DNA of 64,000 nucleotides from Betaproteobacteria bacterium (GTDB lineage Bacteria > Pseudomonadota > Gammaproteobacteria > Burkholderiales > Usitatibacteraceae). Below are positions 49,518 through 63,854 of this stretch, in pieces. Position numbers and translations under genes: made by a program. The notes under the pieces were generated by a model. It was given only the letters and a program-made list of their open reading frames with translations, ran no database searches and was not told the origin of the DNA. Every line of letters begins with the position of its first letter. Position 1 is the stretch's first letter. Location: NCBI GenBank assembly GCA_016720855.1, contig JADKJU010000005.1:249636-313635 (forward strand), written 5' to 3'.

Positions 49518-49531
49518 TTGATCTCCCTTAA
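49518..49531 (+). promoter_or_regulatory. degenerate FNR/Dnr-type box upstream of the hemerythrin gene
   Basis: TTGATCTCCCTTAA (TTGA-N6-TTAA). TAGTCT at 49554-49559 lies where a -10 element falls if the box is centred at -41.5. Confidence 0.35.
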
Positions 49532-49582: not shown

Positions 49583-50155
49583 ATGCCCGCTTCGCCGACC
49601 GAACAGTCCGGCGCCCCGTCCCCGGGGGACGCCCTCGGCACCTGCTACCGCTGCATGGCGCGAATGCTCGATCGCCTGGAGCGGCTCGCCGCCGAGTTCG
49701 ATTCCTCCTTGCACGAAGCGCCGCCCGCGGATGCTGCGGACCGCGCCGGCGCGCTGGTTGCCGACATCGACGAGGCGCTCGCCGTGCACATGGGGGACGA
49801 GGAAAAGGACATCTTCCCGGCCCTGCTCGCGGCGGCCGATTCCCCCGCCCGCCGGGCCCAGGCCTTCGAACTGGTCTCCTCGCTGCTGGTCGAGCACCAT
49901 GAACTGGCGGAGCTGTGGCACGCGCTTCGCATCCCGCTCCTCGCGCTGGGCAGCGGGGTCGCCGTCAGCCTGCCCGGCGGCACGGCCGCGGACTTCCTCC
50001 AATTCGCGCGGCGCCACCTGGAACGCGGGGAACTCGAGCTCGCCGACCTGATGCGCGTAATCGGCCCGCAAAGGTCACGCGAGATCGGCGTCGCCATGGC
50101 GCAGCGCCACGACGATACGCACCTGCGAATCAAGGACTGCCCGCTGAAGCCCTGA
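49583..50155 (+). CDS. hemerythrin (HHE cation-binding) domain protein
   Basis: 190 aa. HMGDEEKDIFPAL and EHHELAE motifs. GGAGGG Shine-Dalgarno upstream. Confidence 0.75.
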   Translation: MPASPTEQSGAPSPGDALGTCYRCMARMLDRLERLAAEFDSSLHEAPPADAADRAGALVADIDEALAVHMGDEEKDIFPALLAAADSPARRAQAFELVSSLLVEHHELAELWHALRIPLLALGSGVAVSLPGGTAADFLQFARRHLERGELELADLMRVIGPQRSREIGVAMAQRHDDTHLRIKDCPLKP

Positions 50156-50197: not shown

Positions 50198-51265
50198 TCA
50201 GCGCAGGGTTCTTGCGAGCCAGACGGCCGCAGTGAGGACGACGACCGCGCCGCCCTGGTGGGCGGTGGCGATGCCGACCGGCACGGCCATCAGCAGCGTC
50301 GTGATGCCGAGCACGACCTGGAGCAGCGTGGCACCGGCCAGCGTGCCGGCGGCAAGACGCGATTCCTTGCTTGCGGTGCGCGAGGCGAACACCCGCCACG
50401 CGAGGATCCACGCACCCGCGAGGACGACGAGCGCGAGCGTGCGGTGCACGAACTGCACGGTGGCCATGTTGTAGGCGAAATTGCGCCACCACGGCTCGAT
50501 CAGCAGGATCTCGGGCGGAACCCAGTGGCCGTTCATGAGTGGCCAGGTGTTGTAGGCGAAGCCGGCGCGGATGCCGGCCACGAACCCGCCAGTGAGCGCC
50601 ATCGCGAACACGACGACAGCGAAGGCGAGACCGGCGCGCCGCAGTGCGTCGGTCGCGCCCGACCGCGCCGGGCGCAGGATGCCATGCGCCACCCAGAACA
50701 TGCACGCGTATATGAGCAGCGCCAGGCCCAGGTGTGCCGTGAGCCGGAACTGGCTCACCTGCGGATCGTCCACCAGACCGCTCTTCACCATGTACCACCC
50801 CATCCCGCCCTGCAGCCCGCCCAGCAGCAGGATGCCCGCGAGCTTCCAGCCCAGGGGCCGGTCCAGCCGCCCGCGCAGCCAGAAGTAGAGGAAAGGCACG
50901 AAGAAGGCCACGCCGATGAGTCGCCCGAGCAGCCGATGGAAATACTCCCACCAGAAGATCGACTTGAACCCCTCGAGGCCCATGTCGTGGTTGCGCAGCC
51001 TGAACTCGGGCGTGAGCTTGTACTTGTCGAAGGTCTCGGCCCACTGCGCCTCGTTCAGGGGCGGGAGCGCGCCCACCAGGGGCTTCCACTCGACGATGGA
51101 CAGGCCGGAATGGGTGAGGCGGGTCGCCCCGCCCACCACGACCATCGCAAAGACCAGGGCGCAGCAGGCCAGCAGCCAGAAAGCCACAGCCCGGCGGCCC
51201 TTGCCCGGGGTCGCGTAAGGGGAGGCCGCCGCCGCGGCGATCGGGAGGGCGTTCACGGGGTCCAT
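50198..51265 (-). CDS. ctaA: heme A synthase (COX15/CtaA family, proteobacterial type)
   Basis: I prefer ATG at complement 51263-51265. GGATRLTHSGLSIVEWKP, WWEYFHRLLGR and FVHRTLA are conserved His-bearing helices. Confidence 0.85.
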   Translation of the reverse strand: MDPVNALPIAAAAASPYATPGKGRRAVAFWLLACCALVFAMVVVGGATRLTHSGLSIVEWKPLVGALPPLNEAQWAETFDKYKLTPEFRLRNHDMGLEGFKSIFWWEYFHRLLGRLIGVAFFVPFLYFWLRGRLDRPLGWKLAGILLLGGLQGGMGWYMVKSGLVDDPQVSQFRLTAHLGLALLIYACMFWVAHGILRPARSGATDALRRAGLAFAVVVFAMALTGGFVAGIRAGFAYNTWPLMNGHWVPPEILLIEPWWRNFAYNMATVQFVHRTLALVVLAGAWILAWRVFASRTASKESRLAAGTLAGATLLQVVLGITTLLMAVPVGIATAHQGGAVVVLTAAVWLARTLR

Positions 51266-51319: not shown

Positions 51320-51333
51320 TTGAACCCGTTCAA
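51320..51333. promoter_or_regulatory. FNR/Dnr-type box (perfect palindrome) in the ctaA / oxidase divergent region
   Basis: TTGAACCCGTTCAA = TTGA-N6-TCAA. TAGCAT at 51356-51361 has class-II spacing (box centre to predicted start site about 41.5 nt). The first downstream start codon with a Shine-Dalgarno is 51417. Confidence 0.6.
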
Positions 51334-51416: not shown

Positions 51417-51602
51417 ATGAGCCAGGTACCCGCCACGCCCGGTGCGGCCGACGATGCCGACGTGCACGACGAACCGATTCCGATGATGCAGCAACTCATC
51501 GACAACCCGTTCCTGCTCCTGTTCCTCGGGGTCGCGATGCCCACCGTCCTCTACATCGTCTGGGGCGTGATGGAAATCGTGGGCATCCCGCTCACCAAGT
51601 GA
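51417..51602 (+). CDS. small single-TM membrane protein heading the oxidase operon
   Basis: 61 aa with AGGAGA Shine-Dalgarno and one hydrophobic helix (FLLLFLGVAMPTVLYIVWGVMEIV). It may be analogous to small accessory subunits of B-type oxidases. Confidence 0.5.
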   Translation: MSQVPATPGAADDADVHDEPIPMMQQLIDNPFLLLFLGVAMPTVLYIVWGVMEIVGIPLTK

Positions 51603-51630
51603 CCGCCGCGACCACCCCGGAGAAGACCCC

Positions 51631-52185
51631 ATGAGCGCCATCCAATCCCCGCCCCAGAGAGTCTGGTGGAAGCAACCCCTCGACCGAGTCGAAGGCACCT
51701 GGATCGTCATCGCCTTCGTGTGGTGCATGGTCATGTTCTTCATGATGCCGTACTGGCACGTCTACGGTAAGCAGAACCTCTCCAACGAGGCCTACCGCTC
51801 CACGCCCGAGGCGTTCCTCGCCAAGGCGCAGGCGATGGTGGACAAGCACACCGTGCGCACCGTCACGGAGCAGAACATTCCCGTCGTGCACCCCGTGCCG
51901 GGCGCCGACGTCTATCTCGTGGCGCGCCTGTGGCAGTGGTGGCCGGTGCTGGAACTCGAGGAAGGCCAGACCTACCGCCTGCACATCATGTCCACCGACT
52001 GGCTGCACGGCTTCTCCCTGCAGCCCGAGAACATCAACATCCAGGTGCATCCCGGCTACGAGCACGTCGTGACCATGACGCCCACCAAGGAAGGCACCTA
52101 CTCGATCATCTGCAACGAGTACTGCGGCATCAACCACCACACGATGGCGAGCAAGCTCTACGTCGTCAAACCGAAGAAGCAGTAG
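51631..52185 (+). CDS. heme-copper oxidase subunit II, single-TM, CuA cupredoxin domain (B-family/ba3-like)
   Basis: 184 aa. The CuA ligands are intact: DWLHGF ... CNEYCGINHHTM (C-x3-C-x3-H-x2-M). Collinear with ba3 subunit II (..DVIHGF....ICNQYCGLGHQNM). Confidence 0.85.
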   Translation: MSAIQSPPQRVWWKQPLDRVEGTWIVIAFVWCMVMFFMMPYWHVYGKQNLSNEAYRSTPEAFLAKAQAMVDKHTVRTVTEQNIPVVHPVPGADVYLVARLWQWWPVLELEEGQTYRLHIMSTDWLHGFSLQPENINIQVHPGYEHVVTMTPTKEGTYSIICNEYCGINHHTMASKLYVVKPKKQ

Positions 52186-52195
52186 GGAGATCGCC

Positions 52196-53926
52196 ATGGC
52201 CGTCAATCGCAATTTCCGCACCTGCCCGTCCACCGGACTCGTCTACCACGAGCCCGCCGAGGCGCTCATCCGCTGGAACGCCGTCGCCGGCGTCGTCTCG
52301 CTCCTCGTGGGCGGCGTCCTGGCCCTGCTGGTCACGCTCACGCGCTGGCCGGCGGTGAGGCTCCTGCCGCCCGACTGGTTCTACCTCGTGCTCACCGCGC
52401 ATGGCCTGGACATGCTGGTGTTCTGGATCATCTTCTTCGAGATCGCGGTGCTCTACTTCGCCGCCTCGACGCTGCTCAAGTGCCGCCTGGCGACGCCGAA
52501 GGTGGCCTGGGTGGCCTTCTGGCTGATGATCGTGGGCGCGATCACGAACAACGTCGCCGTGTTCAAGGGCGATTCCAGCGTCATGTTCACGTCCTACGTG
52601 CCGATGGGGGCTCACCCGCTCTTCTACCTCGGGCTCATCCTCTTCGCCGTGGGCGCGCTCGTCGCCTGCTTCGTGTTCTTCGGCACGCTCGTCGTGGGCA
52701 AGTCGGAGAAGACCTACAACGGCTCGATCCCGCTGGTGACCTTCGGCGCCGTGACCGCGGCGATCATCGCGGTATTCACCATCGCCGCGGGCGCCATCAT
52801 CCTGATACCGACCTTCATGTGGTCCGTGGGGCTGGTCTCGCACATCGACTCCCTCATGTACCGCACGGTCTGGTGGGCGTTCGGGCACTCCTCGCAGCAG
52901 ATCAACGTCGCCGCGCACGTGTCCGTGTGGTACGCGATCGCCGCCATCGTCTTCGGCGCCAAGCCGATGAGCGAGAAGGTGAGCCGCACGGCCTTCGTGC
53001 TCTACATCCTGTTCCTGCAGCTCGCGAGCGCGCACCACCTGCTCGCCGACCCGGGCCTCACCTCCAACTGGAAGATCTTCAACACCAGCTACGCGATGTA
53101 CCTCGCCGTGCTCGCCTCCATGGTGCACGGCCTCACGGTGCCGGGCGCGATCGAGGTGGCGCAGCGCGAGAAGGGCTTCAACAAGGGCCTTTTCGAGTGG
53201 CTGAGGAAGGCCCCGTGGGGCAATCCCAGCTTCTCGGGCATGTTCATGTCGCTCGTGGGCTTCGGCTTCCTGGGCGGGATCTCGGGCGTCATGATGGGCA
53301 CCGAGCAGTTGAACCTCATCATCCACAACACGATCTACGTGCCGGGCCACTTCCACGCGACGGTGGTCGTGGGAACCACGCTCGCCTTCATGGCGCTCAC
53401 GTACTTCCTGATCCCGACCCTTTTCCGGCGCGAACTGATGTTCCCGGCGATGGCCAAGTGGCAGACCTACGTCTATGGCCTGGGCATGATGGGATTCTCG
53501 GTCTTCATGATGGGCGCCGGAACGCTCGGCGTGCCGCGCCGCCATTGGGACATGGCCTTTTCCGGCGCGGTCCTGCCGCACGAGTTCCCCGGCACGGCCT
53601 ATCTCATGATGGGCCTCATGGCGGTCTCGGGCATCCTCGCGACCGTGGGCGGCGCGATGTTCCTCATCAACACGGTGGGGTCGGTGTTCCTCGGCAAGAA
53701 GATCCAGACGCCGGGCTTCGCCCGCGTGTCGGTGAAGGATGGCATGGCCCCGGCGCCGACGCCGGAATTCGCGGCGCCCGCAGTCCCCGCGGTGCACGGC
53801 TCCATCGGCATCGGCGGTTTCGTGGCGCCGGGCACCTTCGTGCTGGCGATGGTGTTCCTCACGTCTTTCATCCTCTACTACTTCGTGAACTGGAAGTACC
53901 TGTCGACCGTCTGGCCGCTGAAGTAG
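52196..53926 (+). CDS. heme-copper oxidase superfamily subunit I, B-family-like but lacking the cross-linked Tyr (NOR-like active site)
   Basis: 576 aa. The His ligands are LTAHG (helix II), WWAFGH (VI), SAHH (VII) and GHFHATV (X). Aligned by eye with Thermus ba3 RTLFWWTGHPIVY, it reads RTVWWAFGHSSQQ, so Gln occupies the Tyr237 position. Confidence 0.85.
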   Translation: MAVNRNFRTCPSTGLVYHEPAEALIRWNAVAGVVSLLVGGVLALLVTLTRWPAVRLLPPDWFYLVLTAHGLDMLVFWIIFFEIAVLYFAASTLLKCRLATPKVAWVAFWLMIVGAITNNVAVFKGDSSVMFTSYVPMGAHPLFYLGLILFAVGALVACFVFFGTLVVGKSEKTYNGSIPLVTFGAVTAAIIAVFTIAAGAIILIPTFMWSVGLVSHIDSLMYRTVWWAFGHSSQQINVAAHVSVWYAIAAIVFGAKPMSEKVSRTAFVLYILFLQLASAHHLLADPGLTSNWKIFNTSYAMYLAVLASMVHGLTVPGAIEVAQREKGFNKGLFEWLRKAPWGNPSFSGMFMSLVGFGFLGGISGVMMGTEQLNLIIHNTIYVPGHFHATVVVGTTLAFMALTYFLIPTLFRRELMFPAMAKWQTYVYGLGMMGFSVFMMGAGTLGVPRRHWDMAFSGAVLPHEFPGTAYLMMGLMAVSGILATVGGAMFLINTVGSVFLGKKIQTPGFARVSVKDGMAPAPTPEFAAPAVPAVHGSIGIGGFVAPGTFVLAMVFLTSFILYYFVNWKYLSTVWPLK

Positions 53927-53949
53927 GCTCGGGCGATCGGGAGACCTCC

Positions 53950-54819
53950 ATGAACAGCCGCGTGAAACTCTTCTTCGACCTGTTCAAGCTCCGCATCGGC
54001 TTCGCGATCGGGCTCACCGCCCTGGCGGGGGCCCTCGCGGTCCCCGGCCGGCAGGCAGGCGCTTGGCAGGTGGCGCTCCTGGTCGCGTGCGTCATCGCCG
54101 CTTCGGCGGCGGCAGGCGCGTTCAACCAGTACGTCGAGCGCGACCTCGATGCGCGCATGGGACGCACGCGCGGCCGCGCCTTCGTCACCGGCCAGCTCAA
54201 GCACGGGCCGTTCTGGCTCGGCGTGATCGGCCTCATGCTGGCGCTTGCCGTGTGCGCTGCGGCGGTCGCCGTGAATGCCGTCGCCGCCCTGTTCGTGTTC
54301 CTGGGCGCCTTCTTCTACGGCGTCGTCTATACGGTCATCCTCAAGCGGCGCACGTGGATGAACATCGTGATCGGGGGCCTCGCCGGCAGCTTCGCGGTGC
54401 TCGCCGGGGCGACCGCCGTCACCCCGGGCGAGATCGGCCCCGTGGCCGCCTCGCTCGCCTGGGTGCTGTTCCTCTGGACGCCGCCGCACTTCTGGAGCCT
54501 CGCCATCGCCTTCCAGGACGACTACCGCGCCGCGGGCGTGCCGATGCTTCCGGTGGTCGTGGGCGAGGCCCGCGCGGCCCGGGTCGTGCTCGGCGGCACC
54601 GTCGTGCTCGTCGCCTCATCCTTCCTGCCGCTCCTCTTCGGCCTGGGCACCCTCTATGCGGCCGGCGCGATCGCCGGCGGACTCCTGTTCCTGCGCGGGG
54701 CCGCGCGCCTTGCGGCCGATCCTTCCCGCACCACGGCGATGGGGAGCTTCCATGCCTCCCTCGCCCAGCTCTCGCTCCTGCTCATCGGCGTGATCGCGGA
54801 CGCGGCCTGGCGGGCCTAG
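53950..54819 (+). CDS. ctaB: protoheme IX farnesyltransferase (heme O synthase)
   Basis: 289 aa UbiA-family protein. NQYVERDLDARMGRTRGR and WTPPHFWSLA motifs. Confidence 0.9.
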   Translation: MNSRVKLFFDLFKLRIGFAIGLTALAGALAVPGRQAGAWQVALLVACVIAASAAAGAFNQYVERDLDARMGRTRGRAFVTGQLKHGPFWLGVIGLMLALAVCAAAVAVNAVAALFVFLGAFFYGVVYTVILKRRTWMNIVIGGLAGSFAVLAGATAVTPGEIGPVAASLAWVLFLWTPPHFWSLAIAFQDDYRAAGVPMLPVVVGEARAARVVLGGTVVLVASSFLPLLFGLGTLYAAGAIAGGLLFLRGAARLAADPSRTTAMGSFHASLAQLSLLLIGVIADAAWRA

Positions 54820-54824
54820 CCCGC

Positions 54825-55658
54825 ATGGGTACCGGTTGCCGAACGCGCTGGCTGCAGACGGCGGCCGCGTTCGCCTTCGGGGTCGTCCTCGGGACCGCGC
54901 AGGCGCGTGCGGAATCCGGGGGCGCCGCCCTGGATGCGAACGCGACCCTCGAACGCAGCCAGCGCGCCCTCGGCAACCCGGTGGGCGACTACGCGTTCAA
55001 GGCGGCCGACGGCAAGCCGGTGCGGCTTTCGCAGTTCCGCGGCCGCCCGCTCCTCGTCAACTTCGTGTACACGGCCTGCTCGCAGGTCTGCCCGACCACC
55101 ACGCGATTTCTCGCGGGTGCGGTCGCCGAAGCCGATCGCATGCTCGGCCCCGGCCGCTATGCCGTGGCCACGATCGGCTTCAACTATCCCTATGACACGC
55201 CGGAGGCGATGCGCGCCTTCGCCCGCGCGCAGGGCATCGATCGCCGCGACTGGGTCTTCCTGAGCCCCGAGGCCGGGGTGGTGGAAAGCATCACCCGCGA
55301 CCTCGGGTTCAGCTTTGCCGCTTCCTCCGGCGGCTTCGACCATCTCACGCAAGTCACGCTCATCGACGAGGAAGGCCGCGTGGCCGCGCAGGTGTATGGC
55401 GAGAGCTTCGAGGTGCCGATGCTCGTGGGCCCGCTCAAGGCCCTGCTCACCAATGCTCCCCTGCCGCAATTCTCCGTCGCCAATCTCCTCGAGCGCGTTC
55501 GATTGCTGTGCACCGTGTATGATCCTCGAAGCGGGCGCTATCGCCTGGACTACAGCATCGTGCTCGAGATTCTCATCGGCGCGTCCATCGTGCTCGCCAC
55601 GTTCTTCTTCCTGTTCCGCGAATGGCAACGGCACCGGCGCCGGTTGCGCGCGGGCTGA
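54825..55658 (+). CDS. SCO1/SenC copper chaperone with C-terminal membrane-anchor extension
   Basis: 277 aa. Thioredoxin-fold CxxxC is FVYTACSQVCP. There is an extra ~70-aa tail ending in a TM helix (ILIGASIVLATFFFLF). Confidence 0.85.
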   Translation: MGTGCRTRWLQTAAAFAFGVVLGTAQARAESGGAALDANATLERSQRALGNPVGDYAFKAADGKPVRLSQFRGRPLLVNFVYTACSQVCPTTTRFLAGAVAEADRMLGPGRYAVATIGFNYPYDTPEAMRAFARAQGIDRRDWVFLSPEAGVVESITRDLGFSFAASSGGFDHLTQVTLIDEEGRVAAQVYGESFEVPMLVGPLKALLTNAPLPQFSVANLLERVRLLCTVYDPRSGRYRLDYSIVLEILIGASIVLATFFFLFREWQRHRRRLRAG

Positions 55659-55662
55659 TGCC

Positions 55663-57600
55663 ATGCTCGCCCTCCTGCAAAGGCTCCTGCAGCGGCTCTT
55701 CCTCGGCGCGGAAAGGATCGCCAACGCCATCTTCGGGGAACGCCTCAATCCGCTCTACCACCTCGGGGCGATCAGCTACTACCTGTTCTGGGTCGTGCTC
55801 GCGAGCGGGCTCTACCTCTACGCCTTCTTCGACACGAGCGTGACCGGCGCCTACGCTTCCGTCGAGCGCCTCACCCACGACCAGCGATGGATCGGCGGGA
55901 TCCTCAGGAGCCTGCACCGCTACGCCTCCGACGGCATGGTGCTCACCATGGTGCTGCACCTGACGCGCCACTTCGCCTTCGACCGGCACCGCGGCTTCCG
56001 CTGGTTCTCGTGGGTGAGCGGCGTGATCCTGCTCTGGCTCGTGTACGCCTCGGGCATCAACGGCTACATGCTGCCCTGGGACCAGCTCGCGCAGTTCACC
56101 GTGACCGCCACCGCCGAGTGGTTCGACGCGCTGCCGGTGTTCAACGGCCTGCTCATGCGCAATTTCCTGAGCGCCGACAGCGTGAACGACCGGTTCTTCT
56201 CCCTGCTCTCGTTCCTGCACATCGGCCTGCCGCTGGGCGTGCTGGCGCTCCTGTGGATCCACACGCACCGCGTGCCGCAGGCGAAGACGCTGCCGCCCAA
56301 CCCGCTCATGGTCGCGCTCGGCGCGGCGATGATCGCGCTCTCCGTCGTGAAGCCGGCGCTGAGCCAGCTGCCCGCCGACCTCGCGACGACGGCGTCCTCG
56401 ATCGAGTTCGACTGGTTCTACCTGCCTACCTACGCCCTCATCTACCGCTGGACGCCCGGCGCCGTCTGGGCGCTCGTCGTCCCCCTCACGATTCTCGCCG
56501 TGCTGGCACCGTGGCTGCCGCCGAAGTTCGGGCGGCGCGCCATTCGCGCGTTCCACGTGCTGGCCCATCCCGACAATCGCATCGTCCCGGTGAAGGAGGA
56601 CGAGTCGATCCTCGACGCCTGCCTGCGCGAAGGGCTTCCCATGCCCTTCGATTGCCGCAACGGCGGCTGCGGCGTTTGCAAGTGCACGGTGCTGCACGGG
56701 GAGGTGGAATTGGGCGCCTACCAGGAAAGTGCCCTGTCCACCGCGGACCGCGAGGCCGGCCGCGTGCTCTCCTGCGTGGCGAAGCCCCTTTCCGATGTCG
56801 AGATCGAATACGAACCCACGGACGAATCCGCGCGTCCCGTCACCCTGCATGACGCGCGAGTGGTCTCCATGGACCTGCTCGCGCCGGACGTCATGCGCGT
56901 TCGCCTCGAGGTCGAAGGGGGAGCGAGGATCCCCTTCTACGCCGGCCAGTACATCAACATCCTGCTGGACGACGGCCAGAAGCGCGCCTTCTCGTTCGCC
57001 ACCCCTCCGCACGAGCCCGGCCCGATCGAGCTGCACATCCGCCGCATCGAAGGCGGGCGATTCACCACGCACGTCTTCACCGCCATGAAGGTCGGCGATC
57101 ATATTCGCTTCGAGGGACCGGTGGGCTCCTTCTTCCTGCGCGAGGACGGGGACAAGCCCGTCATCTTCGTGGCCGGGGCCACCGGATTCGCACCCGTGAA
57201 GAGCATGGTGGAGCACGCGCTGCATGCCGGCGTGACCCGGCCCATGGTGCTCTACTGGGGCACGCGCAACCTCGCCGACATGTACCTTCGCGAACTTCCC
57301 GAGCGCTGGGCGAAGGAGCATGCGAACTTCCGCTTCGTTCCCGTGCTCTCCGATGCGGTGCCCGGCGACGGCTGGGAGGGCAGGAAGGGCCTTGTCCACG
57401 AGGCGATCCTCGCCGACTATCCCGACCTCGGGGGGCATCGCATCTACGCCTGCGGCTCGGTGAAGATGGTCGAGGCCGCGCAACCTGCGTTCGCCAAGCA
57501 GGGGCTCTCGCCCGACGACTGCTTTTCCGATGCGTTCAAGCTCGCACCGCGCATCCATTCGAAGGACGCCGATCTCGTGCGCCTGGGGGGGCGCCCATGA
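55663..57600 (+). CDS. fusion protein: di-heme cytochrome b (bc1/b6-type N-domain) + plant-type [2Fe-2S] ferredoxin + FAD/NAD(P)H ferredoxin-reductase domain
   Basis: 645 aa. Two His pairs are each spaced 14 residues apart (SLHRYASDGMVLTMVLH and FLHIGLPLGVLALLWIH). The 2Fe-2S motif is CRNGGCGVCKC...SCVA. FNR motifs are RAFSFA, FVAGATGFAP and YACGS. Confidence 0.85.
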   Translation: MLALLQRLLQRLFLGAERIANAIFGERLNPLYHLGAISYYLFWVVLASGLYLYAFFDTSVTGAYASVERLTHDQRWIGGILRSLHRYASDGMVLTMVLHLTRHFAFDRHRGFRWFSWVSGVILLWLVYASGINGYMLPWDQLAQFTVTATAEWFDALPVFNGLLMRNFLSADSVNDRFFSLLSFLHIGLPLGVLALLWIHTHRVPQAKTLPPNPLMVALGAAMIALSVVKPALSQLPADLATTASSIEFDWFYLPTYALIYRWTPGAVWALVVPLTILAVLAPWLPPKFGRRAIRAFHVLAHPDNRIVPVKEDESILDACLREGLPMPFDCRNGGCGVCKCTVLHGEVELGAYQESALSTADREAGRVLSCVAKPLSDVEIEYEPTDESARPVTLHDARVVSMDLLAPDVMRVRLEVEGGARIPFYAGQYINILLDDGQKRAFSFATPPHEPGPIELHIRRIEGGRFTTHVFTAMKVGDHIRFEGPVGSFFLREDGDKPVIFVAGATGFAPVKSMVEHALHAGVTRPMVLYWGTRNLADMYLRELPERWAKEHANFRFVPVLSDAVPGDGWEGRKGLVHEAILADYPDLGGHRIYACGSVKMVEAAQPAFAKQGLSPDDCFSDAFKLAPRIHSKDADLVRLGGRP

Positions 57601-58097
57601 ACCGCCCGCTGCGCTACCTCCTGCAGGGCCTCCTCTATGGCGCCTTCGCGGCCACCCTGGGCTATTTCTCGACCTCGCCGGCGTTCGAGCCGCTTCCCCC
57701 GGGCCACGCGCTCATCCGCCTGTCGCTCAACCACGCCGGACAACGCAAGGTGGCCTGCCGCACGCGCACGCCCGAGGAACTCGCGAAACTGGCGCCCAAC
57801 ATGCGGGCAGCGGAAGACTGCTCGCGCGAGCGCGCGCCCGTGCTGGTGAAAGTGGAGCTCAATGGCAAGTCCGTGGCCGACATCGTCGCGGCGCCGACGG
57901 GCCTGTCGCGCGACGGCGCGTCGGTGGCCTACCGGCGCATACCCGTCGTCGCGGGCACGTACCTCGTGAAGGTGAGCATCGCGGACAACGCGGCGGGACT
58001 TTTCGACCGCGTGCGTGAGGAGGAAGTGCGTCTCGAGCCGGGCCGCGTGCTGGTGATCGACTTCGAACCCGGCAAGGGCGGGATCGTGTTGCGCTAG
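57597..58097 (+). CDS. 166-aa membrane-anchored hypothetical protein
   Basis: ATGA overlap with the preceding gene and 2 nt from the next. One N-terminal TM (YLLQGLLYGAFAATLGYF). Strong GC3 coding signal. No motif recognised. Confidence 0.6.
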   Translation: MNRPLRYLLQGLLYGAFAATLGYFSTSPAFEPLPPGHALIRLSLNHAGQRKVACRTRTPEELAKLAPNMRAAEDCSRERAPVLVKVELNGKSVADIVAAPTGLSRDGASVAYRRIPVVAGTYLVKVSIADNAAGLFDRVREEEVRLEPGRVLVIDFEPGKGGIVLR

Positions 58098-58099
58098 CC

Positions 58100-59677
58100 A
58101 TGAAAGCCGCCTCCCTGTCGCTTCCCCGCCCCGGCCGTGCCGCGCTCGTCGTGGAGCGGGTGGACGCGCTCTTCGACCGCGCCTTCGGCCAGCGCCTGAA
58201 CCCGTGGCGGCATCTCGGCGCGCTCGGCTTCCTGTTCTTCTGGATCTGCTGCGCCTCGGGCATCTGGATCTACGTCGGCTACGACACCAGCACCCTCGGC
58301 GCGCACGAGAGCCTGGCCGCGATGGACCGCAACGAGTGGCCGCTTGGCGCGCTGGCGCGCGCGCTGCACCGCTACAGCGCCGACGCCCTCGTGGTGGTGA
58401 CCGCGCTTCACCTCGCGCGGGAACTGGCGCGCCGGCACTACGCGGCGTTCCGCCTCTACGCGTGGCTCACCGGGCTCGTCGTCCTGGTGCTGATGTTCGC
58501 CGCCGGCATCGGCGGCTACTGGCTGCCCTGGGACCAGCTCGCGCAGTGGAGCCTCACGGCCACCACGGAATGGTTCGACGCGCTGCCGGTCTTCGACGGC
58601 GCCCTGTCGCGCAACGTCATCGCCGGCAGCCAGGTGAACGACCGCTTCTTCTCCCTCCTCATCTTCCTGCACATCGGCCTGCCGCTCGCCATGCTCGGCG
58701 CGATGTGGGCGCACGTGCAGCGCGTGAGCCCCGCACGCACCAATCCGCCGGGCGCGCTGGGGTGGGGATCCCTCGCCATGCTGGCGGCGCTTTGCCTCGC
58801 CAAGCCCGTCTCGCTGATGCCTGCGGCCGACCTGGCTTTCCTGCCCGCCAGGATCCCCGTCGACTGGTTCTATCTCTTCCCGCACCCGCTCATGGCCTGG
58901 CTCGGACCCGACGGGCTGTGGTGGGCGACGGCCGCCTTTCTCGCGGGCCTCGCAACCCTGCCGTGGGCCACGCGCGTCGCGCGCGCACCGGCGGCCCGCG
59001 TGAGCCTGGCCAACTGCAACGGCTGTGCGCGCTGCTTCGCGGACTGCCCGTACGACGCGGTGGTGATGGTGGCGCGCACCGACGCGCGTCCGCATCCGCG
59101 TCAGGCACAGGTGAACCCTGACCTGTGCGCGGGCTGCGGCATCTGCACCGGCGCCTGCCCATCGTCCACGCCGTTCCGCCGGGACGAGGCGCTGGTCACC
59201 GGCATCGACATGCCCTCCATGGCCATCGGCGAAATGCGCGACCGGCTGGAGGCGCGCACGGCTGCCCTCGTGGGCCGCCCGCGCATCGTGGTCTTCGGTT
59301 GCCGCTGGGGAGCGGATAGCGAAAGCCTCGCAGGGCCCTCCACCGCCGCGATCGAATTCGTCTGCGGCGCGATGCTGCCCCCCTCGTTCGTGGAATACGC
59401 GCTGCGCGCAGGGGCCGACGGCGTGCTCGTCGCCAGTTGCCGCGAAGGCGACTGCGAGTTCCGCACCGGCGACCAGCTCATCGCTGCGCGGCTGGGCGCC
59501 GAGCGCAAGCCTGCATTGCGATCGAGCGTGGCGCGTGAGCGCGTCCGGCTGGTCCCCGCCGGGCGCACCGATACCGGATTCCTGCGCACGCAGCTCGATG
59601 CCTTCCGCGCGGACCTCGAACGACTCGAATCCCGCCATGCCTCACCCCCCAAACGCCAGGAGAAGCACCATGGCTAG
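58100..59677 (+). CDS. fusion protein: di-heme cytochrome b + 2x[4Fe-4S] ferredoxin + MvhD/FlpD-like (hydrogenase iron-sulfur subunit) domain
   Basis: 525 aa. The cytochrome b part is paralogous to 55663-56500 (ALHRYSADALVVVTALH and FLHIGLPLAMLGAMWAH). Cluster motifs are CNGCARCFADCP and CAGCGICTGACP. The MvhD-like segment is IVVFGCRWGA...FVCGAMLPPSFVEYALRAGADGVLVASCREGDCEF. Confidence 0.8.
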   Translation: MKAASLSLPRPGRAALVVERVDALFDRAFGQRLNPWRHLGALGFLFFWICCASGIWIYVGYDTSTLGAHESLAAMDRNEWPLGALARALHRYSADALVVVTALHLARELARRHYAAFRLYAWLTGLVVLVLMFAAGIGGYWLPWDQLAQWSLTATTEWFDALPVFDGALSRNVIAGSQVNDRFFSLLIFLHIGLPLAMLGAMWAHVQRVSPARTNPPGALGWGSLAMLAALCLAKPVSLMPAADLAFLPARIPVDWFYLFPHPLMAWLGPDGLWWATAAFLAGLATLPWATRVARAPAARVSLANCNGCARCFADCPYDAVVMVARTDARPHPRQAQVNPDLCAGCGICTGACPSSTPFRRDEALVTGIDMPSMAIGEMRDRLEARTAALVGRPRIVVFGCRWGADSESLAGPSTAAIEFVCGAMLPPSFVEYALRAGADGVLVASCREGDCEFRTGDQLIAARLGAERKPALRSSVARERVRLVPAGRTDTGFLRTQLDAFRADLERLESRHASPPKRQEKHHG

Positions 59678-61097
59678 CCTTCACTCCGCCCATGCCCACT
59701 CCCTCGCTTCGGCTGCCGACCAATCGGCGAGCGGCACCACATTCGGGATCACCGTGGGGCGCGACGCCTCCGCGCGCCTCGCGACCGGCTGGCTCGCGCT
59801 CGGCATCGCCGCGCTCGTCGGATCCGGCGTGTTCTCGCTCCTGCTCGTGCTCGCGCGCACGCCGGGGCTCAAGGAAATCTTCCCCGTCGCCGATTTCTTC
59901 CAGGTGGCGCTCGTCGCGCACGTGGACCTGTCGGTCCTCGTCTGGTTCCTTGCCTTCGCGGGCGTGCTGTGGAGCCTTGCGTGCGATGCCCGCGGCATCG
60001 CCGTGGGCTGGGTCGCCCTGGCGCTGTGCGCCGCCGGGACGCTGGCGCTTTGCGTGGCCCCGCTCGCGGGGAACGCGGTGCCGGTGCTGGCCAACTACAT
60101 CCCCGTCATCGACAACGCCGCGTTCCTGGGCGGTCTTGCCGCCATCGGCGCCGGCGTCGCGCTTGCGGCGACGCGCACGTTCTGGGCGGCTCGCGCCTTT
60201 GCCCCGACCCTCGACGGCGAGTCGGCGCTACGCTGGGGAATCCTCGGATCGGCCGTCGCGACGGCCATTGCCCTGGCCGCCTTCGGCTGGTCGTGGATGG
60301 AGCTCTCGCCGCACCTCGAGCGCAAGGCCTACTACGAGCTGCTCTTCTGGGGCGGCGGCCACGTGCTGCAGTTCACGTGGACCCTGCTCATGCTCGCCGG
60401 CTGGCTGTGGCTTGCGAGCGCTCTGGGGCTGCGCCCGGCACTTTCGCCTCGCGTGACGCTTCTCGTCTTCACGATCGCGCTGGCCTGCGTGTTCGTCACC
60501 CCCGTCATCTACATCGCCCACCCGGTCGCCTCGGTGGAGCACCACAAGCTGCAAACCTGGCTCATGCGTTTCGGCGGCGGGCTCGCGATCCCGCCGGTTC
60601 TCCTCGCGCTCCTGTGGGCGATGCGCAGCCTGCCATCCCTCGACGCGCAGAAGCGCCCGATCTTCGGGGCGCTCGCGGCCTCCATCGGGCTCTTCGCGGC
60701 CGGCGGCCTCATCGGCTTTGCCATCAGCGGGGCCAACGTGAAGATCCCGGCGCACTATCACGGCTGCATCGTCGGGGTGACGCTCGCGTTCATGGGACTG
60801 GCCTACCACCTCCTGCCGCAGCTCGGTTTCGCCGCGCCGCGCTCGCGTCTGGCCGCGTGGCAGCCCTGGCTCTACGGCGGAGGGCAGCTCGCGCACATCG
60901 TGGGCCTGGTGTGGTCGGGCGGATACGGCGTTGAACGCAAGGTGGCGGGCGCCGCGCAGGTGCTGCGCACGCCGCAGGAGGTGGCGGGCATGGGGCTCAT
61001 GGGCCTGGGCGGCCTGGTAGCGATCCTGGGCGGCCTCGCGTTCGTGATCGTCGTGATCGGCGCCCTGCGTCGTCCCGCCGGCGCCGAGACCGCCTGA
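59670..61097 (+). CDS. highly divergent heme-copper-oxidase subunit-I homologue (12 TM) retaining all six canonical His ligands
   Basis: I prefer ATG 59670 (AGGAGA Shine-Dalgarno). 475 aa. His84 (LVAHVD), His231 (LLFWGGGH), His291/292 (VEHH) and His362/364 (AHYHG) sit at nearly the same positions as ba3 H72, H233, H282/283 and H384/386. There is no Tyr at His+4 (HVLQF). Confidence 0.65.
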   Translation: MASLHSAHAHSLASAADQSASGTTFGITVGRDASARLATGWLALGIAALVGSGVFSLLLVLARTPGLKEIFPVADFFQVALVAHVDLSVLVWFLAFAGVLWSLACDARGIAVGWVALALCAAGTLALCVAPLAGNAVPVLANYIPVIDNAAFLGGLAAIGAGVALAATRTFWAARAFAPTLDGESALRWGILGSAVATAIALAAFGWSWMELSPHLERKAYYELLFWGGGHVLQFTWTLLMLAGWLWLASALGLRPALSPRVTLLVFTIALACVFVTPVIYIAHPVASVEHHKLQTWLMRFGGGLAIPPVLLALLWAMRSLPSLDAQKRPIFGALAASIGLFAAGGLIGFAISGANVKIPAHYHGCIVGVTLAFMGLAYHLLPQLGFAAPRSRLAAWQPWLYGGGQLAHIVGLVWSGGYGVERKVAGAAQVLRTPQEVAGMGLMGLGGLVAILGGLAFVIVVIGALRRPAGAETA

Positions 61098-61108
61098 GCG
61101 CACCGGTC

Positions 61109-61909
61109 ATGACGCGCGAAGAGCGCATGCTTTCCGCGACCGCGGCCGCATGCGCGGCGCTGGTCTTCATCATCGTCGCTGCCAGCGCCTGGCTGAGGCT
61201 CGTGGCCGTGCCCTGTCCGCCGGCAGGGTGCGAGGGATTCACGCTCACCGATGCCGTGCGCCTCGCGCACCGCGTGGCCGCCATGGGCGTGACGGTCCTG
61301 GCCCTCGTCATCATCGCGCTGGCGTGGAAGGCGCCCCGGCGCTGGGGCCTGCGCATCGCCGCGGCCATCCTCTTCGGCCTCGTGGCCGCGCTCGCCGTCA
61401 TCGGCCGCCGGTCGGCGGGAGCCGCCCCGCCCGAGGTGATGCTCGCCAACCTGCTGGGGGGCCTCACGCTTCTTGCGGTCTCCGTGGCCCTGGCCGTCGC
61501 CCCGCGCCAGCCGCGGGGACGGATCGCACTCCCCTTCGCTGCCGCAGCGTTGCTGTTCGCCGTGTCCACAGGGACGGGGGGCCTGCTGGTCATGGCACCG
61601 CCGGCCGACACCGCGTCGCTGGGCCTCGCCCATCGCGCCCTTTCCTGGGCCACCCTGGCGGGCTGGGGGCTGCTGGCGTTCGCAAGCGCACCCCCGGCCG
61701 GTGTACGTGCGGCAACGCGCCTCGCCGCCGCGCTCATGGCGCTTCAGGTCCTGCTCGCGCTGTCGTTGCCCGCCGGGCCACTGGCGCGTTGGCTTCACAA
61801 CCTGCTCACGTCCGCGGCGCTTCTCCCCGTCATTGCTGCAGCGCTGTCCTGCCGGGCCCCCTTGCGCCCCGATCCCGCGCACCCCGAACGCCTGCCTGCC
61901 GGATCCTGA
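61109..61909 (+). CDS. polytopic membrane protein, CtaA/COX15-like (putative)
   Basis: 266 aa with about 8 hydrophobic segments. A Cys pair lies in the first loop (CPPAGC), followed by AHRVAAMG. Later helices carry His (LAHRAL, WLHNLL). The family call is by pattern only. Confidence 0.4.
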   Translation: MTREERMLSATAAACAALVFIIVAASAWLRLVAVPCPPAGCEGFTLTDAVRLAHRVAAMGVTVLALVIIALAWKAPRRWGLRIAAAILFGLVAALAVIGRRSAGAAPPEVMLANLLGGLTLLAVSVALAVAPRQPRGRIALPFAAAALLFAVSTGTGGLLVMAPPADTASLGLAHRALSWATLAGWGLLAFASAPPAGVRAATRLAAALMALQVLLALSLPAGPLARWLHNLLTSAALLPVIAAALSCRAPLRPDPAHPERLPAGS

Positions 61910-61960: not shown

Positions 61961-62674
61961 ATGCAGCCCGGAGAACCGCGCTCACGCGGGCCCGACATCC
62001 CGGTCGAGCAATTCCTCGTCAACCTGCCGCTCTTCAGCGATCTCACGCCCGAGGAGATCCAGCGCGTCGCGGGCGGCACTCGCCGCATCTACGCGACCAA
62101 GGGCGAGACGCTTTTCACGCGAGGCGACCGTTGCGAGGGCTTCCACGTCGTCCTCTACGGGCAGGTGAAGCTCTTCGTCACTTCACCCCAGGGCTCCGAG
62201 AAGGTGATCGAGATCATGGGCCCGGGCATCTCGTTCGGCGAGGCGGTCCTCTTCATGGACATCCCCTACCCCGTCTCGGCGCAGGCGCTCAAGGATTCGC
62301 TCCTGCTGCACGTCTCCAAGAGCCTCGTCTCGGAGGAGATCGTGCGCGATCCCCGCTTCGCGAGGCGGCTGCTGGCCGGCATGTCGAAGAAGCTTCACCA
62401 GCTCATCCACGACGTGGAGGCCTACTCGCTTCGCTCGGGGCTGGAGCGCGTGATCGGCTACCTGCTGCGCGACGACGCCATTTCCGACGGCTCCGCGCGC
62501 TCGACGAGCGTGACGCTGCCCGCCAACAAGATGATCGTGGCCTCGCGCCTCAATCTCACGCCGGAGTACTTCTCGCGCATCCTGCACGAGCTGGCCGGCG
62601 CGGGGCTGATCGTGATGGAGGGCCGTTCGGTTTCGGTCCCCGACATCGAGCGCCTGCGTACCTACACCGGCTGA
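61961..62674 (+). CDS. Crp/Fnr-family transcriptional regulator, Dnr/NnrR type (no FNR Cys cluster)
   Basis: 237 aa with a cNMP-like beta-barrel and a C-terminal HTH carrying the E--SR recognition motif (TPEYFSRIL), which reads TTGA-N6-TCAA boxes. The N-terminus lacks the Cys-x2-Cys-x5-Cys of FNR. Confidence 0.8.
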   Translation: MQPGEPRSRGPDIPVEQFLVNLPLFSDLTPEEIQRVAGGTRRIYATKGETLFTRGDRCEGFHVVLYGQVKLFVTSPQGSEKVIEIMGPGISFGEAVLFMDIPYPVSAQALKDSLLLHVSKSLVSEEIVRDPRFARRLLAGMSKKLHQLIHDVEAYSLRSGLERVIGYLLRDDAISDGSARSTSVTLPANKMIVASRLNLTPEYFSRILHELAGAGLIVMEGRSVSVPDIERLRTYTG

Positions 62675-62684
62675 ACGCGCAACC

Positions 62685-63854
62685 ATGGCCGCCCGCACCT
62701 CATCCAAGCCGAAATGCGGACCGCCGGCCGCCGCAAACCTCCTCGCCCCCCAGGTCGAGGAGTGGCTCAAGGCCGCCGCCCTCGACGTGGCCGACGACGG
62801 GATCGTCATCTCCGATGCGTCGACCCCCGATGCGCCGATCGTCTATGTGAGCCCGTCGTTCGAGCGGCTCGTGGGTTACTGCGCCGCCGAAATCATCGGC
62901 ACCAACTGCCGCATGGTGCAGGGGCCGGGCACCGATCACGAGACCGTGAAGGGCATCGCGATCGCGCTGCAGAAGGGCAAGGTCTTCCAGGGCGAGATCC
63001 TCAACTATCGCAAGGACGGCACGCCCTTCTGGAATTTCCTGCGCATCGCGCCCATCCGCGACGCCGCCGGGAAAGTCACCCACCATGTGGGCACCCAGTC
63101 GGACGTGACCGAGCTGCACCACGCGCGCGAGCGCGAGCACGACTTGCAGGACACGGTCGCCCACGCCTCGCGCGTGCGCACGGTGGCCGCGCTGGGCGCG
63201 TCGCTCGCGCACGAAGTGAATCAGCCGCTCGCGGCCATCATCACCAACGCCGAGGCGGCGCTGCGCTTCCTCGACGCCGGCAACCCGGCGGAAGTGCGCG
63301 AGGCCCTGGTGGCCATCGCCGGCGATGCGCGGCGCGCCGGCGAGATCATCCATCGCGCGCACCGACTCGTTCGCAAGCAGCCCGCGGCAGCCGAGGCCGT
63401 CGATCCCGCGCGCACCGCCTCCGAGGTTCTCGACTTCGCGCGTGCACGGCTTCGCCATGCCGGCGTCAAGGCGCGTCTCGAGGCGGCCGGAACGCTGCCG
63501 CGCGTAATGGCCGATCCCATCCAGCTCCACCAGGTGCTCCTCAATCTCGTGGTGAATGCGATCGAGGCGATGGAGGGCGCGGCGCCCGGCACCGAGCGCA
63601 CGCTGGTCGTGGCGATCGAGCGCGAAACGGGCGGCGTGCGCCTTCGCGTGCAGGACACCGGTCCAGGCGCCGACGACGAATCCCTGGCCCGCATGTTCCG
63701 GACATTCCATACGACGAAGGCCCGCGGCACCGGCCTGGGACTGCTCGTCACGCGCTCCCTCGTGGAGGCGCACGGGGGGCGGCTGGAAGTTGCGCGCAAC
63801 CCCGGCCGCGGCCTCGTCTTCACGATCCACCTGCCCGGAGAAGAGCCGAAATGA
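62685..63854 (+). CDS. LOV-domain sensor histidine kinase
   Basis: 389 aa. The LOV core is GIVISDAS.PDAPIVYVSPSFERLVGY...GTNCRMVQGPGTD...EILNYRKDGTPFWN...THHVGTQSDVT (photoactive Cys in NCR). HisKA motif SLAHEVNQPL. HATPase motifs DTGPG and GTGLGL. Confidence 0.85.
   Translation: MAARTSSKPKCGPPAAANLLAPQVEEWLKAAALDVADDGIVISDASTPDAPIVYVSPSFERLVGYCAAEIIGTNCRMVQGPGTDHETVKGIAIALQKGKVFQGEILNYRKDGTPFWNFLRIAPIRDAAGKVTHHVGTQSDVTELHHAREREHDLQDTVAHASRVRTVAALGASLAHEVNQPLAAIITNAEAALRFLDAGNPAEVREALVAIAGDARRAGEIIHRAHRLVRKQPAAAEAVDPARTASEVLDFARARLRHAGVKARLEAAGTLPRVMADPIQLHQVLLNLVVNAIEAMEGAAPGTERTLVVAIERETGGVRLRVQDTGPGADDESLARMFRTFHTTKARGTGLGLLVTRSLVEAHGGRLEVARNPGRGLVFTIHLPGEEPK

Follow-up and report, generated by a model that had tools for sequence, protein, structure and literature searches.

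The window analyzed here (the whole 64,000-nucleotide stretch of contig JADKJU010000005.1, from a betaproteobacterium of the Usitatibacteraceae) harbors, at positions 51417-55658 of the forward strand, five tightly packed open reading frames (ORFs) that code for a small peptide, subunits II and I of a heme-copper oxidoreductase (HCO), a heme O synthase (CtaB) and a copper chaperone (SCO1). Judging from the diagnostic active-site residue, the closest relatives and the operon structure, it is very likely that this enzyme is a nitric oxide (NO) reductase of the eNOR family, encoded together with genes for the assembly of its cofactors. As an enzyme, it is an ordinary eNOR from an already described family, and the same type of operon has already been described for Ferrigenium straubiae; the region is of interest chiefly because eNOR genes are so often mis-annotated and because a conserved accessory module lies beside this one. 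The region was first pointed out by a model that had read the DNA without database searches (hereafter, the sequence-only reading), and the ORFs are present as it described them.

51417-51602, + strand: conserved peptide of 61 amino acids (aa) with a single transmembrane (TM) segment, recognized by its conservation and one hydrophobic segment
51631-52185, + strand: putative eNOR subunit II, 184 aa, with a CuA cupredoxin domain and one TM helix (PF00116; alignment to the ba3 CuA domain)
52196-53926, + strand: putative eNOR subunit I, 576 aa (PF00115; alignment to ba3, residue conservation, AlphaFold2 model, neighbor-joining trees)
53950-54819, + strand: ctaB/cyoE, heme O synthase (TIGR01473, 239.8 bits against a cut-off of 210.3)
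54825-55658, + strand: SCO1/SenC copper chaperone with a CSQVCP motif and a C-terminal TM segment (PF02630; E-value, 1.8e-12)

Subunit I and the active site

Subunit I matched PF00115 with an E-value of 3e-66, and a phmmer search against PDB sequences identified subunit I of the Thermus thermophilus ba3 oxidase as its closest entry (E-value, about 1e-48). In the helix VI region of this alignment, which is gapless, the ba3 segment LFWWTGHPIVYFWLL stands opposite VWWAFGHSSQQINVA of the window, so that the motif GHPIVY of ba3 reads GHSSQQ. Because there are no gaps, Tyr237, the cross-link tyrosine of ba3, corresponds to Gln235 of the window, and the replacement of this tyrosine noticed in the sequence-only reading is confirmed. 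The same alignment paired ba3 H72 with H69, H233 with H231, H282 and H283 with H280 and H281, H384 with H385, and H386 with H387, which accounts for all six of the histidine ligands that had been listed. By homology, H69 and H387 would ligate the low-spin heme, H385 the high-spin heme, and H231, H280 and H281 the metal of the CuB/FeB site. The six histidines, as well as Q234 and Q235, are invariant among 82 non-identical homologues of subunit I (69-94% identity). The histidines are also invariant across a 40-sequence alignment that extends to B-family oxidases, and the QQ pair is retained in relatives down to 41-62% identity.

According to the literature, the position of the cross-link tyrosine is occupied by Tyr in O2 reductases, Glu in cNOR and qNOR, Asn in sNOR and Gln in eNOR (PMC8756737, Table A4). 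The table reproduces that of Hemp and Gennis, and Gln was used as the criterion for eNOR calls (PMC8756737). The proposal of the sequence-only reading that the enzyme is a B-family-related HCO of NO reductase type is thus consistent with a published diagnostic residue, while its label "sNOR/eNOR-like" can be narrowed: the eNOR half stands, and the sNOR half, for which Asn would be expected, falls away.

Four of the K-channel residues of ba3 are preserved. Y248, S261, S309 and T315 of ba3 correspond to Y246, S259, S308 and T314 of the window, all conserved in the homologues, whereas T312 is changed to H311 and Y244 to V242 (window numbering). Among further polar residues, N237, Y270 and H311 are invariant and H241 is found in 81 of the 82 close homologues; none of these is shared with ba3.

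The AlphaFold2 model of subunit I (mean predicted local distance difference test score (pLDDT), 82.5; predicted template modeling score, 0.86) has its best structural neighbors among the ba3 oxidases of Thermus and Aquifex, with TM-scores of 0.76-0.78; the PDB copy used for this matching held no eNOR structure. The T. thermophilus ba3 oxidase (PDB 1EHK, 1XME), being the top match in both sequence and structure (TM-score, 0.76-0.81), shares with the window enzyme the six histidines, the four K-channel residues, a CuA subunit II with a single TM segment and a small additional TM peptide. It differs in Tyr237 and Val236 (Gln235 and Gln234 in the window), in the two K-channel changes given above and in an overall identity of about 25-30%; the window protein also falls outside of the GHPxVY clade to which ba3 belongs.

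In a distant low-GC locus (L087, 3004-3132), a 42-aa ORF of its own (…GTFAIAIIFLATFIILYFLNYKYL…) codes for the final TM helix of subunit I. The equivalent segment of the window (53800-53926) is fused at the C-terminus of subunit I, and the linker preceding it, residues 510-537, has a pLDDT below 50.

Subunit II and the small peptide

Subunit II aligns to the CuA domain of Thermus ba3 and has a single hydrophobic segment (residues 19-44). A complete CuA site, formed by H126, C161, E163 (backbone position), C165, H169 and M172, is invariant in 78 homologues, in full agreement with the complete CuA site and single TM segment noted in the sequence-only reading. Residue E21, kept in 77 of the 78, is likely to be the counterpart of E15 of ba3 subunit II at the entrance of the K-channel, as assigned by eye.

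The 61-aa peptide is preceded by the sequence AGGAGA and has no matching Pfam family. It precedes subunit II in all of the 61 loci compared, contains the conserved core DNPFLLLF..G..PTVLYI.WGVMEI, and was also found in Thermus, in Defluviimonas and in the low-GC locus L087. It is probably a small subunit of eNOR.

Relatives and phylogeny

The set of related loci consists of the 80 closest ones obtained from a scan of genome contigs, all with at least 69% identity. As the subunit I of the window had no exact-sequence match, genomic context was taken from a protein 94% identical to it. The closest relatives come from Casimicrobiaceae, Usitatibacter and Burkholderiales genomes. More widely, relatives are encoded in at least 568 stretches of species-representative genomes and in more than 8000 protein clusters; close relatives occur in over 560 species-level genomes and among metagenome proteins by the thousands. 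In Usitatibacter palustris (81% identity), the operon adjoins nirS and genes for cytochrome c, hemerythrin, a DUF2249 protein, NnrS and two Crp/Fnr regulators, and at least 13 related loci have nirS no more than 10 kb away.

Full-length relatives collected by an exhaustive HMMER search of 50%-identity cluster representatives fell into the following groups according to the helix VI motif (identities are given to the window protein):

GHxxQQ (QQ group), 41-54%: the window, P0121, P0125 and P0128, the last from the haloarchaeon Natrarchaeobius
GHxxQY (QY group), 35-45%: Hodarchaeales and Thermoproteota proteins
GHPxVY (classical B family), 25-33%: Thermus-type ba3 oxidases
FHxxHY (His-poor group), 32-34%: P0170, P0200 and P0224
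GGGHxLQ(Y/F) (HCO2-like group), 28-29%: P0254 and P0269

This distribution indicates that Gln234 (His+3) is ancestral to the whole lineage, and that Gln235 (His+4) is the change specific to eNOR. The QY group, which comprises the nearest Tyr-bearing relatives, shares with the window the Gln at His+3 and the helix VII tyrosine (Y270). Its members retain Tyr at His+4, so they are presumably O2 reductases. A "K family" of O2 reductases has been reported to cluster beside eNOR (bioRxiv 592808), and we infer that the QY group corresponds to it. The three His-poor proteins, one of which comes from a metagenome-assembled genome of Dehalococcoidia, have FH(V/I)xHY in helix VI, Tyr in place of the first helix VII histidine (FLYHL) and Tyr in place of the high-spin heme histidine (G/AY(F/L/V)H); this pattern of ligands matched no named family.

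In neighbor-joining (NJ) trees, subunit I of the window was placed in the QQ clade, outside of the GHPxVY B-family clade (bootstrap, 96). The QQ clade includes the haloarchaeal protein and a protein of T. thermophilus found by tblastn on plasmids, which are 41-44% identical to the window protein. The Thermus homologue (44% identity) is encoded on a megaplasmid, pTF24b of strain TF24 (locus L088, 8283-10668), where it is annotated as b(o/a)3-type oxidase and adjoins nirS and genes for cytochrome c552, a radical SAM protein and an Rrf2 regulator. It has the helix VI motif GHGAQQ, and GHFK replaces GHFH. His/Lys ligation of the low-spin heme is known for some eNORs (PMC11214002), and the presence of this variant in a QQ protein ties the QQ clade to the published family.

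Comparison with described NO reductases

The eNOR of Rhodothermus marinus DSM 4252 was purified in 2024 and shown to reduce NO (0.68 per s at 25 °C) but not O2, with heme As in both heme sites (PMC11214002). Hence, the remark of the sequence-only reading that few of the predicted NO reductase families have been characterized biochemically no longer applies to eNOR. Members of the family have polar residues resembling those of a K-channel, and CtaA is encoded in many eNOR operons (PMC11214002). The enzyme of the window agrees with all of the sequence-level statements made on eNOR in that work. In common with the eNOR family (Hemp and Gennis 2008; PMC11214002), it has a glutamine where the cross-link tyrosine would be, the full set of six histidines, a CuA subunit II with a single TM segment, polar residues of the K-channel kind, genes for CtaA and CtaB in or beside the operon, and relatives linked to nirS. 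On the other hand, the window clade has additional conserved cytochrome b fusions, a second HCO-fold protein (HCO2) and a CtaA-like protein, which are not discussed in the main text of PMC11214002.

The closest described operon is that of F. straubiae strain KS (bioRxiv 10.64898/2026.01.22.701106). It codes for eNOR II, eNOR I, heme o synthase, Sco1, an "eNOR scaffold protein of unknown function", a cytochrome b/[Fe-S]/FAD/NADH protein and a cytochrome b/[Fe-S] protein. Compared by description, the gene set is the same as in the window, except that ctaA is present in the window operon and absent from that of F. straubiae. During autotrophic denitrifying Fe(II) oxidation, the eNOR I/II transcripts were the most abundant among those of the heme-copper oxidoreductases of the organism, and its proteome contained four of the proteins that the operon encodes (bioRxiv 10.64898/2026.01.22.701106). 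eNOR has also been recorded in other Gallionellaceae. Based on these records and the Ferrigenium operon description, the region belongs to a known, biochemically anchored family.

The canonical NO reductases cNOR and qNOR (NorB), which catalyze the same reaction, likewise have no cross-link tyrosine and carry a polar residue (Glu) at helix VI His+4. These enzymes have a cytochrome c subunit or a quinol site and no CuA. They were rejected as an identity for the window enzyme, in which the Glu is replaced by Gln and the CuA subunit is complete, and were seen only as distant structural matches (4xyd, for HCO2). A gNOR was rejected as well. In that family, one of the three active-site histidines is replaced by Asp and the cupredoxin subunit has no CuA ligands (PMC11214002), whereas all three histidines and a complete set of CuA ligands are present in the window. 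A B-family O2 reductase in the strict sense was excluded by the motif GHSSQQ, which does not have the tyrosine of GHPxVY.

Several points weigh against the eNOR assignment. Family membership is drawn from the diagnostic residue, the clade-mates and the operon structure, the R. marinus eNOR being compared by its published description. The trees were built by a crude method (NJ with corrected p-distances), and the bootstrap value of the QQ clade dropped from 97 to 43.5 once the Thermus, Defluviimonas and L087 sequences were added; the tree is therefore consistent with eNOR placement, but not decisive. A search for nir, nor, nos and nar genes in the rest of the window gave no hits, leaving the other ~50 kb devoid of nir, nos and nar. 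Finally, the non-heme metal of the window enzyme may be either Fe or Cu, and a gene for SCO1 is present.

Alternative explanations

It is possible, though improbable, that the protein belongs to the eNOR family but has a physiological role other than respiratory NO reduction, such as NO detoxification only or the turnover of another small substrate. The absence of nir and nos genes from the window would fit such a role, as would the conserved accessory redox module beside eNOR, for which the role is unexplained. In addition, only a single member of the family has been assayed, with a kcat of 0.68 NO per s (PMC11214002), and alternative substrates or a generalised role have been left open for eNOR homologues (PMC8756737). 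Against this, nirS adjoins eNOR in many close relatives and in Thermus, the active-site residues are identical throughout the clade, and the eNOR transcripts of Ferrigenium exceed those of its other heme-copper oxidoreductases in denitrifying Fe(II) oxidation (bioRxiv 10.64898/2026.01.22.701106).

Much less probable is an O2-reducing oxidase of the B or K type, in which the role of the missing tyrosine would be taken over by another one of subunit I, as in cbb3 oxidases. The fold and the ligand set are those of ba3 oxidases, the nearest Tyr-bearing relatives (QY group, 35-45%) are presumably O2 reductases, and ctaA, ctaB and sco1 are customary oxidase assembly genes; moreover, helix VII contains an invariant tyrosine, Y270. 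This possibility was judged by sequence position and by comparison of clades. The migrated tyrosine of cbb3 lies six residues before the HH pair of helix VII, where the window has Leu, whereas Y270 sits 10 residues before the pair. The QY group, in which the canonical tyrosine is retained, shows equal conservation of Y270; hence, this residue is not a replacement for the canonical one and has another role. According to Murali et al. (2024, PMC11214002), no migrated tyrosine occurs in these NO reductase families, and R. marinus eNOR did not reduce O2 with a range of electron donors. The FNR/Dnr-type box upstream of the operon and the linkage to nirS also indicate anoxic conditions or the presence of NO. 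The sequence-only reading had considered that placement among genuine B-family oxidases with a tyrosine from another helix would speak against it; the NJ trees place subunit I outside of that family, and the cbb3-type position is occupied by Leu.

An sNOR of the norSY-senC type, known from ammonia oxidisers, can be practically dismissed: it is likewise a B-family-derived NO reductase candidate with a CuA-type cupredoxin subunit II (PMC11214002), and the senC/sco1 gene downstream does resemble the norSY-senC order mentioned in the sequence-only reading, but the likeness ends at gene order, as sNOR has Asn at the Tyr position, where the window and all 82 homologues have Gln, and another K-channel pattern without the serine equivalent to ba3 S309 (PMC11214002), which is conserved as S308 in the window.

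Cofactor assembly and regulation

The genes are arranged in the order small peptide, subunit II, subunit I, ctaB, sco1 and two cytochrome b fusion proteins, with ctaA transcribed divergently. The G+C content is about 65-72% throughout the region, and no compositional break was observed. Features found upstream of the operon and at the far end of the region are as follows:

49518-49531: weak or degenerate FNR-like box TTGATCTCCCTTAA, before the hemerythrin gene
49583-50155, + strand: hemerythrin-domain protein, 190 aa, just upstream of ctaA (PF01814; E-value, 3e-10)
50198-51265, - strand: ctaA for heme A synthase (COX15/CtaA), transcribed divergently to the eNOR genes (PF02628; E-value, 7.7e-112)
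51320-51333, no strand assigned: palindromic box of the FNR/Dnr type, TTGAACCCGTTCAA, between ctaA and the eNOR genes, 84 bp ahead of the first ORF
61961-62674, + strand: Crp/Fnr-family regulator (PF00027, PF13545)
62685-63854, + strand: PAS-domain histidine kinase, FixL-like (PF13426, PF00512, PF02518)

Both of the dedicated heme synthase genes named in the sequence-only reading were recognized by profile searches: ctaB scored above the cut-off of TIGR01473, and ctaA, in addition to its PF02628 match, gave an E-value of 9.5e-93 with NF045570, under the cut-off of that model. Based on translation and on the lengths of homologues, the most likely starts of ctaB and senC are 53950 and 54825, respectively. 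Downstream genes were counted in the 49 loci with at least 8 kb of downstream sequence; ctaB was found in 44 of these and sco1/senC in 47, while ctaA is located upstream in 33 of 61 related loci. The earlier proposal of O/A-type hemes, inferred from these genes, fits the heme As of the R. marinus enzyme (PMC11214002).

Besides the box TTGAACCCGTTCAA, the 64-kb window contains only one other TTGA-N6-TCAA site. Of 75 related loci, 53 have this motif in the 260 bp preceding the small ORF, compared with about 2.5 expected from the background rate. The Crp/Fnr regulator has no FNR-type N-terminal cysteine cluster, a feature in keeping with a Dnr/NnrR type; it had no curated NCBIfam model at cut-off, and among the 34 loci covered in full, 15 encode a homologue no farther than 10 kb away. 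Thus, of the "Dnr-type regulator and box" of the sequence-only reading, the box and the Crp/Fnr regulator were recovered, and the Dnr label is unproven. The PAS-domain kinase matched NF041777 (FixL) with an E-value of 3e-50, under the cut-off, and is conserved in the related loci L001 and L005.

Proposed mechanism

By homology, either cytochrome c or a cupredoxin in the periplasm would deliver electrons to the CuA site of subunit II, from which they would pass to the low-spin heme held by H69 and H387 and then to a binuclear center composed of the high-spin heme (H385) and the non-heme metal bound by H231, H280 and H281. At this center, Gln235 and the neighboring Gln234 would occupy the place of the His-Tyr cross-link of O2 reductases, or of the FeB-ligating Glu of cNOR, and the predicted reaction is 2 NO + 2 e- + 2 H+ -> N2O + H2O. 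Protons would probably be taken up from the cytoplasm through an analogue of the K-channel, including E21 of subunit II and T314, H311, S308, Y246 and S259 of subunit I, and such cytoplasmic uptake would make the NO reduction step electrogenic. CtaB and CtaA are expected to supply O/A-type hemes (heme As in the R. marinus enzyme), and SCO1 may load copper. Transcription is probably activated from the FNR/Dnr-type box at low O2 or in the presence of NO.

Downstream accessory module

Five further genes follow sco1 on the same strand:

55675-57600, + strand: fusion protein of di-heme cytochrome b, [2Fe-2S] ferredoxin, FAD and NAD(P)H-binding domains (PF00033, PF00111, PF00970, PF00175)
57597-58097, + strand: conserved 166-aa protein with two conserved cysteines, found in 48 of 49 loci
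58100-59677, + strand: fusion protein of di-heme cytochrome b, 2x[4Fe-4S] and an FlpD/MvhD-like domain (PF00033, PF12838, PF02662)
59670-61097, + strand: HCO2, diverged second HCO-fold protein, 475 aa, without a subunit II of its own (PF00115; E-value, 1.9e-16)
61109-61909, + strand: truncated CtaA/COX15-like membrane protein, 266 aa, with about 8 TM segments (profile-profile match to CtaA)

The NAD(P)H-binding fusion protein was found in 39 of the 49 loci and the FlpD-type one in 35. At least one of the two is present in 45 loci, and these cytochrome b fusions are widespread among Burkholderiales, Casimicrobiaceae and Usitatibacter genomes. In the Ferrigenium preprint, the two cytochrome b genes were regarded as "rather unusual" and suggested as genus markers, and the counterpart of the NAD(P)H-binding fusion was proposed to act as a quinol:NAD+ oxidoreductase (bioRxiv 10.64898/2026.01.22.701106). 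The 166-aa protein matched neither Pfam nor NCBIfam models; in the distant locus L085, its homologue adjoins an HCO2-like gene.

A search of PDB sequences with HCO2 returned no match, but hhalign aligned it to eNOR subunit I with a probability of 99.5%. Its AlphaFold2 model (pLDDT, 88) shows the HCO fold with 12 TM helices, and the top Foldseek match is ba3 (TM-score, 0.66-0.74). The protein was found in 47 of the 49 loci. Invariant in HCO2 are H84, H231, Q234, H362 and H364, i.e., the three heme-ligand histidines, the helix VI histidine and the Gln at His+3, while the Tyr position is occupied by Phe. The His pair of helix VII reads E-H in proteobacterial members and is gone in distant ones. 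A metal site of two histidines and one glutamate (E290/H291) was considered and rejected, being conserved in the proteobacterial members only and not in P0254 and P0269. Assignment of HCO2 to the "N2O red" or NOD families was also rejected, as these are close to cNOR/qNOR (PMC11214002) and HCO2 aligns best with eNOR and ba3. More than 6700 homologues of HCO2 are present in the database, under the names of cbb3-type oxidase subunit I or hypothetical protein.

The 266-aa protein has no Pfam match and was related to CtaA by hhalign (probability, 94.3%; E-value, 1e-7; 232 columns). In P0371 and P0390 (762 and 777 aa), the CtaA-like protein is fused to the C-terminus of HCO2. Parts of the module are also linked on low-GC contigs: in L087, the order is peptide, subunit II, eNOR I (GHSSQQ), 42-aa peptide, HCO2, ctaB and sco1, and in L085 it is FlpD, the 166-aa homologue, DUF420 and HCO2.

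What the data show for these genes is a tight, ancient linkage (47 of 49 loci, and also the distant L085 and L087) and the fusion of HCO2 to the CtaA-like protein in two cases. Tentatively, the cytochrome b fusions, the 166-aa protein, HCO2 and the CtaA-like protein might constitute an unrecognised membrane machine dedicated to eNOR. In one version, the module may be an NAD(P)H-driven system for the synthesis or insertion of heme A(s), which would be analogous to the dependence of mitochondrial Cox15 on ferredoxin and ferredoxin reductase. In the other version, ranked level with the first, it may be a further respiratory complex that handles NO or reduces NAD+, in line with the speculation on Ferrigenium, for which a quinol:NAD+ oxidoreductase and a supercomplex were proposed (bioRxiv 10.64898/2026.01.22.701106). 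If the module does supply or insert A-type heme, this would address a question raised for Ferrigenium, namely how a cofactor whose synthesis depends on O2 is made under denitrifying conditions.

Annotation and neighboring genes

Subunit I, subunit II, the small peptide, HCO2 and the 166-aa protein had no NCBIfam model at cut-off. Genomes like that of the window are scored as having no NO reductase, so that N2O production and the capacity for low-oxygen denitrification are underestimated. The operon adds one Casimicrobiaceae/Usitatibacter-like betaproteobacterium to the potential N2O producers.

The hemerythrin gene upstream of ctaA has a counterpart at the equivalent position in L001 and L005, and hemerythrin genes also adjoin eNOR or nirS in Usitatibacter and on a Defluviimonas plasmid. 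A DDE transposase (DUF4372 and DDE_Tnp_1) is encoded at 3028-4245 of the window, a long way from the operon, with which it seems to have no connection.

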